Shown piece by piece: positions 4,416-12,416 of a DNA stretch of 61,152 nt. Both the position numbers and the translations under genes were made by a program. The stretch is taken from IMG/VR virus record IMGVR_UViG_3300034118_000426. One strand, written 5' to 3'. This stretch comes from an uncultured virus (IMG/VR IMGVR_UViG_3300034118_000426). Lineage: Duplodnaviria; Heunggongvirae; Uroviricota; Caudoviricetes. A model generated the notes under the pieces. It was not told the DNA's origin. It did not search any database and saw nothing but the letters and a program-made list of their open reading frames with translations. The first letter of the stretch is position 1; every line of letters begins with the position of its first letter.

Positions 4416-4445
4416 TAGGTTTTCTCCTTAATGGTTTAGGTTAAA

Positions 4446-4529
4446 GAGCGTTCCTTCGGTCGTTTGCGTTCGCTATAGCGAATGAACGTTCCGTTCCGCG
4501 ACTTACTTCCGTCCCATAGGGATGAACGT
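4446..4529 (-). ncRNA. Tandem glnA-type (glutamine-I) riboswitch
   Basis: Two units, CGUUCAUCCCUAUGGGACGGAAGUAAGUCGCGGAACG and CGUUCAUUCGCUAUAGCGAACGCAAACGACCGAAGGAACG, directly 5' of a DUF4278-like gene, a known context for this motif. Confidence 0.8.
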
Positions 4530-4552
4530 ATTTTATATATGATATTGAGATT

Positions 4553-5019: not shown

Positions 5020-5109
5020 TGGGAGAGGGTGGAATCGAACCACCATTGCCAATGAACGGAATCGAACCGTCTCTGATACCGTCGTACCCACCATCCAAGG
5101 TGCTCTCCC
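5020..5109 (-). ncRNA. tRNA-like RNA with two T-arms and no anticodon loop
   Basis: Acceptor GGGAGAG/CTCTCCC+A; T-loops GACGG-TTCGATT-CCGTT and GGTGG-TTCGATT-CCACC. Confidence 0.7.
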
Positions 5110-5264: not shown

Positions 5265-5338
5265 TAGTCCCAACGGGATTCGAACCCGTGTCTACACTGT
5301 GAAAGAGTGTTGTCCTAGGCCGACTAGACGATGGGACC
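5265..5338 (-). tRNA. tRNA-Glu(TTC)
   Basis: ACACT-CTTTCAC-AGTGT. Confidence 0.92.
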
Positions 5339-5341
5339 AGA

Positions 5342-5434
5342 TGGGAGGGGTATCCCACACGAAGTTGCTTACGGATTACGCTTCGTAGCCTTATGAATCC
5401 TGCCATCATCCGATGGTGGTTAGAAATCCCTCCC
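5342..5434 (-). ncRNA. Unnamed structured RNA with an acceptor-like closing stem
   Basis: GGGAGGG/CCCTCCC+A; internal CCATC/GATGG, GGATT/AATCC and ACGAAG/CTTCGT pairings. Confidence 0.6.
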
Positions 5435-5437
5435 CAA

Positions 5438-5516
5438 TTCCAGTTGTTGCTACAACATTTCTCTACACACTGGCAAACTCTAAGAAATGCGTGAGAGTTA
5501 GAATACTGACTCTCAA
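5438..5516 (-). ncRNA. Unnamed structured spacer RNA
   Basis: TGAGAGT/ACTCTCA hairpin, CATTTCT/AGAAATG stem and crossing CCAGT/ACTGG pairing. Confidence 0.45.
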
Positions 5517-5590
5517 CGACCCATACGGGATTCGAACCCGTGATCTCCACCGTGACAGGGTGGCGTCATAGACCGCTAGACTAATGGGTC
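5517..5590 (-). tRNA. tRNA-Asp(GTC)
   Basis: CCACC-CTGTCAC-GGTGG. Confidence 0.93.
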
Positions 5591-5594
5591 AAGG

Positions 5595-5685
5595 TGAGAG
5601 AGGAGGGAATTGAACCCCCGATGGTTCTTATGTAACGGTTTTACAGACCGCAGCCACACGTATTGCCAACAGTAGCCACTCTCTC
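5595..5685 (-). tRNA. tRNA-Tyr(GTA), enlarged D-loop
   Basis: GCGGT-CTGTAAA-ACCGT; long variable region. Confidence 0.85.
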
Positions 5686-5688
5686 ATA

Positions 5689-5760
5689 TGGGTCTGGCGG
5701 GATTCGAACCCACAACTTGCTGGTTAAAAGCCAGTTACTCTACCGTTGAGTTACAGACCC
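5689..5760 (-). tRNA. tRNA-Lys(TTT)
   Basis: CTGG-CTTTTAA-CCAG. Confidence 0.92.
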
Positions 5761-5765
5761 AAGAG

Positions 5766-5836
5766 TTAAATTGTCAAGGTGCTGGTGGGTCTCCCACCGA
5801 TGTATCTACAATAAAATAGGGGGGCGGTTTTGTCAA
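5766..5836 (-). promoter_or_regulatory. tRNA-operon promoter with boxB/boxA-like leader
   Basis: TTGACA-N17-TATTGT, then hairpin GGTGGG-AGA-CCCACC, then GCACCTTGACAA. Confidence 0.6.
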
Positions 5837-5876
5837 CTGCCCCCCTGATAAATCTTGCTTATGTGTCAGATGTCGG

Positions 5877-5978
5877 TCATCGTTTCCACTTATGAGCAAG
5901 CACGGGGGCCTGAGCAATATGCCAATAACGGCAATCGCTTTCCATAAAAATCTCAATTTGCTTGCTGAAGTTAGTCAT
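5877..5978 (-). CDS. 33-aa peptide upstream of the tRNA operon (possible leader peptide)
   Basis: MTNFSKQIEIFMESDCRYWHIAQAPVLAHKWKR; downstream of late promoter TATAAATA (5999-6006) and AAAGG. Confidence 0.5.
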   Translation of the reverse strand: MTNFSKQIEIFMESDCRYWHIAQAPVLAHKWKR

Positions 5979-6014
5979 GATGTTCGACCTTTAGTGTTTA
6001 TTTATAAGAGTTTA

Positions 6015-6111
6015 GATGGAGTAAGCGTAATACACCTCAAGGATGTAACAGAGGCTTACCCTCTATCTCGCTACGGCATTCTGGATTATCAGCTCCAGCG
6101 CAAGTAGCAAC
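6015..6111 (-). ncRNA. 97-nt structured RNA, copy 1 (repeat of 9619-9715)
   Basis: Near-identical repeat directly 3' of tRNA-Asn; the differences between copies preserve base pairs. Confidence 0.75.
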
Positions 6112-6183
6112 TCCCCCACCTGGACTCGAACCAGGAACCCCAGAGTTAACAGCTCCGTGCTCTGCCAATTGAGCTATAAGGGA
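6111..6183 (-). tRNA. tRNA-Asn(GTT)
   Basis: CGGAG-CTGTTAA-CTCTG. Confidence 0.92.
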
Positions 6184-6189
6184 ATGAAA

Positions 6190-6360
6190 TCAGGATTGCT
6201 TACAATCCATCATGTATTCTACAGTATTTGCTATGTCATTCATAGCATCACGTAGATGTGGTTGTTGACCACTTTCTTGTCTAACCATTGGGCGATGGTT
6301 ATCGGTAAGAGACCAGCGCCATTGCTTTACAATAGCACAATACCATAGATTAATTTTCAT
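6190..6360 (-). CDS. Cyanophage-type hypothetical protein
   Basis: MKINLWYCAIVKQWRWSLTD...QESGQQPHLRDAMNDIANTVEY. Confidence 0.75.
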   Translation of the reverse strand: MKINLWYCAIVKQWRWSLTDNHRPMVRQESGQQPHLRDAMNDIANTVEYMMDCKQS

Positions 6361-6520
6361 GTTTGAAATATTCAAGTCTAATCCAGTTGAGAAGGGCATT
6401 GATTTCAAATGACGAATGATTTGGTGTGCCCAGATAATACTCAGTATTCTCTGCGTCGGCAACATATTTTTCAAGAGCTGCTATGGCAACTTCTCTGTCT
6501 CTTTGTGAAATAAGTGACAT
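6350..6520 (-). CDS. Hypothetical protein
   Basis: MSLISQRDREVAIAALEKY...LLNWIRLE; ATAAATA and GAGG upstream. Confidence 0.7.
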   Translation of the reverse strand: MSLISQRDREVAIAALEKYVADAENTEYYLGTPNHSSFEINALLNWIRLEYFKHEN

Positions 6521-6542
6521 GTTATTTATCCTCAAGGATAAG

Positions 6543-6614
6543 AGCGGGGTATCGGAATCGAACCGACGACATCTAACTTGGAAGGATAGCGTTCTACCGC
6601 TGAACTAACCCCGC
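6543..6614 (-). tRNA. tRNA-Gly(TCC)
   Basis: CTATC-CTTCCAA-GTTAG; GCG 5' end; U73. Confidence 0.92.
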
Positions 6615-6616
6615 AG

Positions 6617-6853
6617 ATGCTCTCTGCTACACTATGTATCTGCTACGATACCATGTAGTTTTGAGCAAACCCAACATATTGGGTTGCAATCTCCAGTTTT
6701 TCATGCCTTTGATTGCGTGATAGAGGCTTGATTGCGAAAGGCAATCTGTTTGAGCATATCATAACGACCGTGCCAATCTCGGACTAGGCTAACTTAATAC
6801 TACCTGGCCAGATAGTTGGCGTCTTTCTAGGCTATCTGCCTAACGACTACCAA
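6617..6853 (-). ncRNA. Unnamed multi-hairpin non-coding region between tRNA-Leu and tRNA-Gly
   Basis: TAGGC/GCCTA, GATTGC/GCAATC and AACCCAA/TTGGGTT hairpins; ATGCTC/GAGCAT closing stem; no ORF in track. Confidence 0.5.
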
Positions 6854-6934
6854 TGTCGCTGAAAGGACTTGAACCTTCACGTTAAAAACACTGGAACCTA
6901 AACCCAGCGCGTCTACCAATTCCGCCACAGCGAC
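6854..6934 (-). tRNA. tRNA-Leu(TAG)
   Basis: CTGGG-TTTAGGT-TCCAG; variable arm. Confidence 0.92.
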
Positions 6935-6938
6935 GTGG

Positions 6939-7012
6939 GGGCGGGAGTGGGATTTGAACCCACGACCTGCGGCTTATGAGACCGCTGAACTACCAGACTG
7001 TTCCATCCCGCG
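6939..7012 (-). tRNA. Initiator-type tRNA-Met(CAT)
   Basis: C1 x C72 mismatch, A11-U24, CGCGGG 5' end; GCGGT-CTCATAA-GCCGC. Confidence 0.85.
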
Positions 7013-7023
7013 TTGACCCCCAT

Positions 7024-7053
7024 ATTATATATGAGGGAAGTGGGGGTTGTCAA
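7024..7053 (-). promoter_or_regulatory. Sigma70 promoter for a tRNA sub-operon
   Basis: TTGACA-N18-TATAAT; similar to 9816-9845. Confidence 0.75.
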
Positions 7054-7065
7054 TCCCCCCGTTGC

Positions 7066-7157
7066 TCGGCTCGCCACCTGCCCTTTGACCAGAGGCAGGA
7101 AACTGGGCGGGAGTAACCCCATCCGCACCACCAGTTTTTGAGAGAAACTGGAAACTC
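7066..7157 (-). ncRNA. wcaG-like RNA motif
   Basis: Hairpins each followed by UGGYG (CCAGTTT/AAACTGG then TGGTGCGG; CCTGCC/GGCAGG then TGGCGAGC), the described wcaG signature in cyanophages. Confidence 0.65.
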
Positions 7158-7195
7158 ATGAAGGGGGACTTCACCCGACCAGGGCAAGTTTAGTG

Positions 7196-7390
7196 TCATT
7201 CCGAGACAGGTTGAGGAATCAAATCCTCGTATGCAGCTTCTACTGCTTTTTCAAAATCGTCGAAAGGTCCGTGGTTTACTTCATTATAGACATAATAATA
7301 TTTGTCTTCCACTTCCAAAACATCGAAGTAAGTAATAACTTCATCATCGTTGTCAAGTTTTTCAACAATTCTCATCTTAACAGGATTCAT
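7196..7390 (-). CDS. Hypothetical acidic protein
   Basis: MNPVKMRIVEK...HGPFDDFEKAVEAA. Confidence 0.7.
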   Translation of the reverse strand: MNPVKMRIVEKLDNDDEVITYFDVLEVEDKYYYVYNEVNHGPFDDFEKAVEAAYEDLIPQPVSE

Positions 7391-9032: not shown

Positions 9033-9105
9033 TGGAGAATAGCGGACTCGAACCGCTGACATTCGCCTTGCAAAGGCGCTACTCTACCAACTGAGTTAAT
9101 TCCCC
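9033..9105 (-). tRNA. tRNA-Ala(TGC)
   Basis: G3-U70; loop TTTGCAA. Confidence 0.93.
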
Positions 9106-9252
9106 TTGTATTCGCTCATAGTATGAATATGGAAGAAGCATAACATCAGAACCATTAGCAGTCGTAATAATAAAACTTTCTTTATTGAGCATCACAGCAT
9201 CCATAATCTCATCAAAGTCGTGGCAAAAAGTTTCTTCTGTAATCGTTTTCAT
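9079..9252 (-). CDS. Phd/YefM-like antitoxin-fold protein
   Basis: MKTITEETFCHDFDEIMDAVMLNKESFIITTANGSDVMLLPYSYYE fits the Phd/YefM pattern; 3' end runs into tRNA-Ala. Confidence 0.65.
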   Translation of the reverse strand: MKTITEETFCHDFDEIMDAVMLNKESFIITTANGSDVMLLPYSYYERIQGELTQLVE

Positions 9253-9521
9253 ACCATACACTCCATGTCTTTTTCTTCTTGTAGGCAACCGATACTAGTT
9301 AAATATTCGATGGTTTCATTACATCCTCCCATCAGATGACCATCAAGAGTCACACGAGGAAAAGTAGCACCTTCACCAAACTTATTATAGAATGCTTCCC
9401 TATTGAAGTCAACATCCAGTTTATACTGCGTGTATTTGACAGTAAAACTATCAAGGATGACCTTGAGCTTACGACAATATTCACAGTTATCTCTTGTGTA
9501 AATAACCAGTTGCGAAATCAT
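9249..9521 (-). CDS. nrdC: Glutaredoxin
   Basis: CEYC, TFPRV, GGCNE. Confidence 0.9.
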   Translation of the reverse strand: MISQLVIYTRDNCEYCRKLKVILDSFTVKYTQYKLDVDFNREAFYNKFGEGATFPRVTLDGHLMGGCNETIEYLTSIGCLQEEKDMECMV

Positions 9522-9542: not shown

Positions 9543-9616
9543 TCGGCGTGGCAGGATTTGAACCTGCGACCTTCTGCTCCCAAAGCAGTTGCGCTACCAA
9601 GCTGCGCTACACACCG
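9543..9616 (-). tRNA. tRNA-Pro(TGG)
   Basis: CGG 5' end; loop TTTGGGA. Confidence 0.92.
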
Positions 9617-9618
9617 TT

Positions 9619-9715
9619 GATGGAGTAAGCGTAATATACCTCAAGGATATAACAGAGGCTTACCCTCTATCTTGCTACGGCATTCTGGATTATCAGCTCC
9701 AGCGCAAGTAGCAAC
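9619..9715 (-). ncRNA. 97-nt structured RNA, copy 2
   Basis: Repeat of 6015-6111 between tRNA-Ser(TGA) and tRNA-Pro. Confidence 0.75.
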
Positions 9716-9799
9716 GGAAGTGGTAGGATTCGAACCCACGATGGCTTTCACCATGCTTGTTTTCAAGACAAGTTCCTTCAACCACTCGGACACACTTCC
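9715..9799 (-). tRNA. tRNA-Ser(TGA)
   Basis: CTTGT-CTTGAAA-ACAAG; variable arm; G73. Confidence 0.93.
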
Positions 9800-9815: not shown

Positions 9816-9845
9816 ATTATATAGGAGGTCTGGGGGGTCTGTCAA
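9816..9845 (-). promoter_or_regulatory. Sigma70 promoter for a tRNA sub-operon
   Basis: TTGACA-N18-TATAAT. Confidence 0.75.
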
Positions 9846-12045: not shown

Positions 12046-12117
12046 TGGGCGATACTGGAATCGAACCAGTGACAGCTTGCTTGTAAGGCAAGAGCTCTAC
12101 CGCTGAGCTAATCGCCC
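12046..12117 (-). tRNA. tRNA-Val(TAC)
   Basis: CTTGC-CTTACAA-GCAAG. Confidence 0.93.
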
Positions 12118-12416
12118 TGCCTAAGTTCTACGTGAACTTCACGATGACAGTTAGCACAAAGTATAGCACATTTGTCTAGTTCTGTCATTATCTTTTCCCA
12201 ACTCCAAAGACGCATCTTATTCCAAGCTGCTTCTTTTTGTGTAGGGTCGAGATGGTGGAACTCTAAAACCTCTGAGTATTTATCATACCCACAACGTTCG
12301 CACTTTCCACCTTTGTATTCTACAGCATCAAGTTTGCGTTGTTGCCATCTTTGAATACAATACTGATTGAAAGATGATTTCTCATCTTCGGTCATCAGTT
12401 TATAAGGTTTTCCCAT
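12108..12416 (-). CDS. HNH endonuclease
   Basis: GGKCERCGY..LEFHHLDP..KCAILCANCHREVH. Confidence 0.9.
   Translation of the reverse strand: MGKPYKLMTEDEKSSFNQYCIQRWQQRKLDAVEYKGGKCERCGYDKYSEVLEFHHLDPTQKEAAWNKMRLWSWEKIMTELDKCAILCANCHREVHVELRQGD

Follow-up and report, generated by a model that had tools for sequence, protein, structure and literature searches.

The window, by which we mean the whole 61,152-nucleotide stretch of DNA analysed here, is DNA of a T4-like myophage, with genes for gp23, portal, sheath, DNA polymerase, the gp55 sigma factor and nrdAB among the 52 open reading frames scanned. The named phages that match it best are Synechococcus phages, from which we infer a picocyanobacterial host, and the virus is most likely a cyanomyovirus. 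There are 24 tRNA calls, all on the minus strand, and a 97-nt repeat is present twice among them. Read on the minus strand, the repeat consists of a 5′ half (module A below) and a 3′ half (module B), scored by covariance models R1 and R2, respectively. The features discussed in this report are the following:

4445–4530, glutamine riboswitch aptamer at the edge of a tRNA run (Rfam)
6015–6111, minus strand, repeat copy 1, the first base of which is the tRNA-Asn discriminator
6015–6067, minus strand, module B copy 1 (R2, 80.7 bits; host homologues in Abi_2 leaders; pairing counts)
6068–6110, minus strand, module A copy 1 (R1, 61.3 bits; covariation; context)
6111–6183, minus strand, tRNA-Asn(GTT) with no encoded CCA, whose discriminator adjoins module A copy 1 (tRNA call and Rfam)
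7024–7053, minus strand, candidate sigma-70-type promoter (12/12 match to consensus as sole basis) upstream of the copy-1 run of tRNA-Met/Leu/Gly/Asn
7063–7159, wcaG RNA at the edge of a tRNA run (Rfam)
9079–9288, minus strand, gene for a Phd/YefM-like protein antitoxin within the tRNA cluster (PHROG 375, E 7.5e-10; Pfam PF02604, E 1.3e-5, which is under its cut-off)
9543–9616, minus strand, tRNA-Pro(TGG), the 3′ flank of repeat copy 2 (tRNA call and Rfam)
9619–9715, minus strand, repeat copy 2, the first base of which is the tRNA-Ser(TGA) discriminator
9619–9671, minus strand, module B copy 2 (R2, 81.8 bits)
9672–9714, minus strand, module A copy 2 (R1, 62.9 bits)
9715–9799, minus strand, tRNA-Ser(TGA) with no encoded CCA, the 5′ flank of repeat copy 2 (tRNA call and Rfam)
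9816–9845, minus strand, candidate sigma-70-type promoter (12/12 match to consensus as sole basis) upstream of tRNA-Ser, A, B and tRNA-Pro

Several other elements of the cluster were recorded. An HNH endonuclease gene (12108–12416) lies between tRNA-Arg and tRNA-Val, and similar insertions recur in other arrays. The ARAGORN calls tRNA-Ser(cga) at 5020–5093 and tRNA-Arg(gcg) at 5593–5685 are absent from Rfam at gathering and are probably atypical or miscalled. A 37-nt hairpin straight after tRNA-Leu (6815–6853, minus strand) has no Rfam match, recurs in about 23 other inter-tRNA spacers and is a candidate for a further module; two stable hairpins (z −3.5) are present ahead of tRNA-Gly at 6615–6690 on the same strand. 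The 176-nt spacer between tRNA-Asp and tRNA-Glu (5340–5515) has no Rfam match and a fold no better than that of shuffles, and similar sequence occurs in two lake metatranscriptome contigs. Metatranscriptome contigs (from 4 of 9 runs) shared at most 10% of words.

The duplication, which was reported in an initial annotation of this DNA, is real: the two copies are identical at 94 of 97 positions and differ at 6033/9637, 6045/9649 and 6069/9673. Base pairing is preserved at all three, as had been claimed; on the minus strand 6045 and 6033 change together from C-G to U-A in a hairpin, and at 6069 a U-G pair in a stem becomes U-A. The helices named there are all present in the predicted fold, and each copy does start at a tRNA 3′ end, namely at the discriminator G of tRNA-Asn or tRNA-Ser(TGA), so that the shared non-tRNA part is 96 nt long. 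Copy 2 ends 2 nt before tRNA-Pro. The minus-strand fold has a z of −2.7 in both copies and the plus-strand folds are equal or better (z −3.6 and −3.9), so folding alone cannot choose the strand; the minus strand was chosen because of the G-U/A-U change and the strand of the tRNAs. One double and one single change between two copies are weak covariation evidence by themselves, and the strong covariation comes from the wider homologues described below, in which the helices are kept. No Rfam family covers the element, either at gathering in the window or at E ≤ 10 over positions 5300–7200. The annotation's picture of a functional structured RNA is supported in substance and altered in form, in that the repeat is two independent fused modules rather than one RNA. 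Its statement that no named family could be assigned is right as far as Rfam is concerned, but module B can be assigned by homology to a clade of Abi_2/AbiF leader RNAs.

Both modules are common in the tRNA clusters of cyanomyoviruses. Named cyanophages carry the two halves apart: module A comes after tRNA-Thr in both S-RIM50 and S-RIM8, with S-SZBM1 as a further carrier of A, and module B is present alone in S-RIM8, S-RIM32 and S-SRM01. Pattern scans of IMG/VR gave at least 121 stretches for each module, and the module counts given here and below cover 246 loci and the window and are not counts of independent events, because the loci overlap and include near-identical phages. Among the matches listed, the module A pattern fits 137 sites, 109 of which keep a GAUAA loop that the pattern does not demand, and the module B pattern matched 155 sites, 13 of which were discarded as unrelated to leave 142 (one more was discarded later). 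Among the matches listed, B comes straight after A at 48 of the 109 A sites, and 41 of the 142 B sites have A in front of them. Within 150 nt there is a tRNA for 106 of the 109 GAUAA-bearing A modules, for none of the 28 fits that lack GAUAA and for 137 of the 142 B modules, and the nearest flanking tRNA is never on the opposite strand, again among the matches listed.

The same scans brought up further elements of the arrays. An element of about 100 nt that starts GTAGGAAGTGCAA (L014 1091–1192, L130 and others) is often found directly after module B and has no Rfam match at gathering in L014 or L130. Between the modules there are tRNA-like elements with odd anticodon arms that were left unscored by Rfam (L001 2846–2919 and L003 3052–3124, in S-RIM8 and S-RIM32). 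Just upstream of module B, L146, L167 and L207 have a stretch bounded by TTCTACT and GTAGAT, which we take to resemble the handle of a Cas12a repeat, though with a larger loop, and L012 has a tmRNA of cyanobacterial type (239–535) within its phage tRNA array.

Module B folds into a hairpin with a basal AGA/C loop, an 8-bp stem, a CHC/C 3×1 loop, a U-U mismatch and an apical stem-loop. Over the host and phage copies taken together, pairing is kept in 98.5% of cells, with changes on both sides in 9 of 19 pairs. A search in which both stem arms were left free gave 120 matches, of which 110 are in loci that have a tRNA, with 26 distinct arm pairs, in which 180 of 182 positions pair. The register that pairs 7–14 with 44–51 as a continuous stem was selected by the host copies; the first register, on which model R2 was built, was rejected, since the host copies support the shifted one. 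The unpaired AGA/C, CHC/C and U-U bases are conserved while the stems swap, and this is also true between phage and host. The idea that the apical loop mimics an anticodon was dropped because that loop comes in lengths of 5 and 7 nt, and a truncated apical stem is also seen (L068).

Host copies of module B lie at Abi_2 genes. Model R2 matches 3 of 151 Cyanobiaceae genomes at 44–46 bits, and all three matches sit between a TTGACA promoter and the gene for an Abi_2 protein (Pfam PF07751, E ≤ 1e-45; PADLOC AbiD; PDB 8VZ6, E 4e-26); type II antitoxin or toxin genes adjoin two of the three loci. Abi_2 is present in only 6 of the 151 genomes, the three B-bearing ones among them, and the other three comprise two with a canonical-type abiF hairpin and one with a broken gene. 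R2 had no match in 151 genomes of the phylum of a Rahnella genome. Metagenomes supplied 21 AbiF relatives, 14 of them close (73–100% protein identity); B is upstream (37–47 bits) in each of the 11 close relatives whose 5′ end is intact and the remaining 3 lack the 5′ part, and these copies are not independent because they are essentially one lineage. More distant relatives (two metagenomic ones and 8 of 239 plasmids) mostly have B-like or other hairpins at the same place, with 12–21 bits or no score against the B model, and a leader is missing from one of them. When 34 proteins were placed in a tree, B or B-like RNAs went with 11 that group as a single clade (98/97), separate from the proteins that have canonical abiF leaders, the RNA types having been labelled by eye, with the distant loci scoring weakly (12–21 bits) or not at all. 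AbiF is a HEPN toxin that is neutralised in cis and in trans by the RNA upstream of its gene (PMC12373285; PMC13064643; PMC12737573), and its R-x4-H motif, reported to be required for toxicity in AbiFCd (PMC12373285), reads RNRCAH, and so is intact, in each of the tree's six B-type proteins. On sequence comparison, then, module B is homologous to the RNA that precedes an Abi_2/AbiF HEPN toxin clade in Cyanobiaceae and some Proteobacteria, and we consider its descent from an AbiF-type RNA highly probable.

The Rfam abiF family (RF03085) does not detect module B, with no match in the window at its 37-bit gathering threshold and none at E ≤ 10 over 5300–7200, and it has no match at E ≤ 0.5 at the host B loci. 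In the cyanobacterial phylum as a whole, Abi_2 was found in 44 of 401 genomes, and 20 leaders were read from 30 loci. The strong Abi_2 matches among these loci mostly have an abiF-type hairpin, yet Rfam abiF was detected in only 4 of 20 loci scanned, and the Rfam model is therefore narrow. The Abi_2 genes of L303, L305 and L272 have leader RNAs unlike either abiF or B (those of L303 and L272 without an Rfam match), so the Abi_2 family has more RNA classes.

In phages module B is an orphan with no Abi_2 gene. A tblastn search with the 34 proteins found no Abi_2 in the 246 loci and the window, and none was found in the complete genomes of the four named cyanophages S-RIM8, S-SRM01, S-RIM32 and S-RIM50; the nearest virus record (55% complete) has neither Abi_2 nor module A. 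Canonical abiF RNAs also occur as orphans in phage tRNA arrays, with seven Rfam matches, one in 4 named-phage loci and six in 12 viral loci that had been preselected as likely. Canonical abiF also occurs there in longer-loop versions, some of them immediately behind B, which look like the leader of a second Cyanobiaceae AbiF system. At about 6716–6763 of the window (minus strand) and in L061, and there only, the conserved halves of abiF stand in reversed order around a hairpin; a circularly permuted abiF at this place was considered and rejected, as the fold gives it no support (z −0.76).

Because B precedes the gene of a suicide-defence toxin in bacteria of the host type, the virus probably silences that defence with it, and because the phage keeps B without the toxin, we propose that B tops up the antitoxin. 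The steps would be as follows: host-type sigma-70 promoters would transcribe the tRNA operon of the T4-like phage early, together with its duplicated cassette of two small RNAs; maturation of the tRNA ends would free these RNAs, by a 3′ cut after the discriminator and by RNase P at the next tRNA; and B would bind B-clade AbiF and hold the toxin inactive, supplementing the antitoxin when infection would deplete it and in this way preventing abortive infection. We give a probability of about 0.7 to this reading, namely that B is a captured AbiF-type RNA antitoxin which is released by tRNA processing and blocks abortive infection in trans. One point that counts against such a decoy is that B-type AbiF is rare in hosts (3/151) whereas B is common in phages.

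The position of the host RNA in a 5′ leader would also suit a cis-acting attenuator or leader of abi_2, the phage copy of which either titrates away a regulator or is a neutral remnant of a captured gene, and there are precedents in AbiD1, which is controlled through its 5′ UTR, and in RCd22, which is reported to act in cis as well (PMC12373285). We think this very unlikely, given that canonical abiF RNA works in trans according to the same report and that the phage B has no Abi_2 nearby, yet persists in many contigs, its changes being compensatory, and is duplicated in the window. It is only a little easier to believe that B, though derived from AbiF, is now a generic stable hairpin that aids the processing of tRNA precursors or protects transcript ends, and that A is likewise. 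The places in which the modules occur would allow it, since among the matches listed A starts at most 12 nt from an upstream tRNA in 85 of 109 cases, B ends at most 6 nt from a downstream tRNA in 82 of 142 and B comes straight after a promoter in 31 of 141. Against such a generic role, unpaired bases are conserved in B and in A (GAUAA) despite freely swapping stems, which indicates a specific ligand; moreover, 13 (A) and 10 (B) different tRNA calls neighbour the modules among the matches listed, and most tRNA junctions of the window have neither module. Theta ribozymes, which are HDV-like, sit at the 3′ ends of phage tRNAs, and ribozymes of this type have a nested double pseudoknot that begins at the cleavage site. 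The element is like them in lying directly after phage tRNAs, and it starts exactly after discriminators that are followed by no encoded CCA, so that a self-cleaving ribozyme of the HDV type that forms tRNA 3′ ends had to be considered. The repeat differs in being two separable hairpins: its covariation supports simple hairpins and does not indicate a double pseudoknot, its halves occur apart, no Rfam ribozyme matches at E ≤ 10, and about a fifth of the A modules among the matches listed are not directly after a tRNA, all of which makes a ribozyme exceedingly improbable.

Module A is a 43-nt hairpin with a covarying outer stem, a conserved UUGCG/AAUGCC core and the GAUAA loop. Over 45 sequences, pairing is seen in 94% of cells and both sides change in 9 of the 15 pairs; 0 of 500 shuffles reached the covariation score, the core being fixed by the search pattern and the outermost modelled pair not being real; relaxed scans of the core found G-U to A-U variants and some U-U. 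The loop could be taken for the anticodon stem-loop of tRNA-Ile(GAU), with A as a decoy for an anticodon nuclease or a tRNA-binding enzyme. In the window it reads CUGAUAA, which we take to be the tRNA-Ile anticodon loop, and GAUAA is found in all 109 tRNA-linked or loop-bearing A modules, with none of the 28 fits without it lying near a tRNA, among the matches listed. It is also kept in a distant phage that is unrelated in gene content (L325, a complete 50-kb genome), where module A lies between tRNA-Leu and tRNA-Met (1493–1537) and the inner stem is fully swapped; the host of this phage may reveal the partner of module A. Set beside an anticodon arm (7-nt loop, U33, 5-bp stem), however, only GAUAA is invariant; the loop is not of constant length and the base ahead of GAU is variable, the loops having 8–10 nt and the commonest variant having no U before GAU. 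The conserved internal loop of A has no counterpart in tRNA, and no cellular partner was found in the searches for A. This mimicry is the main alternative for A, and we consider it unlikely.

The searches for a cellular module A were samples, so that A is to be called not found rather than absent. R1 matched 1 of 151 Cyanobiaceae genomes, at a phage-looking fragment of a tRNA cluster, none of 11 genomes of one genus, none of 151 from the Rahnella genome's phylum, and 1 of 151 genomes across the class (27 bits, in the centre genome and apparently within a coding region). The A pattern had six matches on genome contigs, two of which (L249 and L252) are tRNA-cluster fragments that look phage-derived, the R1 fragment among them, and the other four were rejected because they have no outer stem or lie within coding DNA; L322 was rejected as it is antisense in a long ORF. 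A relaxed pattern matched 4 of 401 Cyanobiaceae, with no pairing in three of the four, plasmids gave only chance-level matches, and there was no match at E ≤ 5 in 46 Abi_2 loci. Beside DUF3800 genes R1 gave nothing significant in a small sample of 4 loci from 251 Cyanobiaceae genomes. Two of the Cyanobiaceae DUF3800 genes (L334 and L337) have in common a conserved, promoter-proximal hairpin RNA upstream, which has no Rfam match at E ≤ 0.5 and no copy in the phage loci. The conserved unpaired bases of module A, its fusion to B and their shared lifestyle suggest that A is most likely a protein-binding decoy like B, for a host factor, a reading to which we give even odds.

A wider reading, which we advance tentatively and judge slightly less probable than not, is that the tRNA clusters are counter-defence arrays, in which processing would free shuffled decoy RNAs, each for a different RNA-inhibited host defence protein. 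B and canonical abiF would then address two AbiF clades, and antitoxins of undescribed defence systems would be found in A and the remaining unassigned spacer RNAs, so that phage arrays could be read backwards to discover such systems. The route taken here, from phage spacer RNA to covariance model to neighbouring host gene, is applicable to the remaining orphan RNAs. It also suggests a possible function for the non-tRNA cargo of cyanophage tRNA clusters, which is usually annotated as regulators of host metabolism. Module B would be a candidate RNA-based counter-defence against AbiF, a toxin-antitoxin family proposed as the ancestor of Cas13, and the structurally distinct class of AbiF RNA to which it belongs, missed by Rfam, helps in understanding how HEPN nucleases read RNA. 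We found no phage inhibitor of AbiF in the literature, and no experiments on B-clade AbiF in the portions of the AbiF literature that were available. Phage decoys of the AbiF antitoxin and motifs A and B were likewise not found in the available portions of the literature (including PMC12283969 and PMC5737381), and Zilberzwige-Tal 2025 or the supplement of PMC5737381 may already describe RNAs of the B type or their phage copies.

How does module B compare with the RNAs already described? Inspection of the Rfam consensus beside the folds predicted for B, for its host form and for abiF-type leaders shows that abiF RF03085 and B have a common core, which is a helix, a CHC (CUC-type) bulge opposite one pyrimidine and a variable apical stem-loop. 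They differ in that RF03085 has a CCCGCC/GGCGGG outer stem and a 6-nt 3′ bulge, the place of which is taken in B by an unbroken 8-bp stem and a basal AGA/C loop, and they are paired with different clades of AbiF protein. Like the AbiF antitoxin RNA (AbiFr, RCd22; 8VZ6), host B has a sigma-70 promoter on one side and an Abi_2 HEPN gene on the other; the antitoxin of the AbiF type III system is beside its toxin, whereas phage B has no toxin gene. The inhibitory bases of the PbAbiF RNA are reported to be in a single-stranded bulge (PMC12737573), and this bulge could not be mapped onto B. Cyanophage S-CREM1, a cyanomyovirus with small structured RNAs, is reported to have abiF, wcaG, manA and glnA RNAs (PMC9964418), and wcaG and glnA are common to it and the window, but modules A and B are not Rfam families. 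In the available portions of PMC9964418 and PMC12197685, cyanophage abiF is listed as an sRNA with no assigned role and is not read as an antitoxin decoy. A precedent for the proposed function is the pseudo-ToxI of PhiTE (PMC3475682), likewise an orphan RNA of a lytic myophage that resembles a type III antitoxin and suppresses abortive infection; there, excess pseudo-ToxI suppresses ToxIN abortive infection and the wild-type, unexpanded locus gave no protection. Pseudo-ToxI acts on ToxN and does so as an expanded repeat, whereas B would act on a HEPN AbiF and is present in wild phages as standing, structurally conserved copies between tRNAs. Phage mimicry of a type III antitoxin is thus already known, and what is new here is the class of AbiF RNA and its proposed delivery from tRNA arrays.
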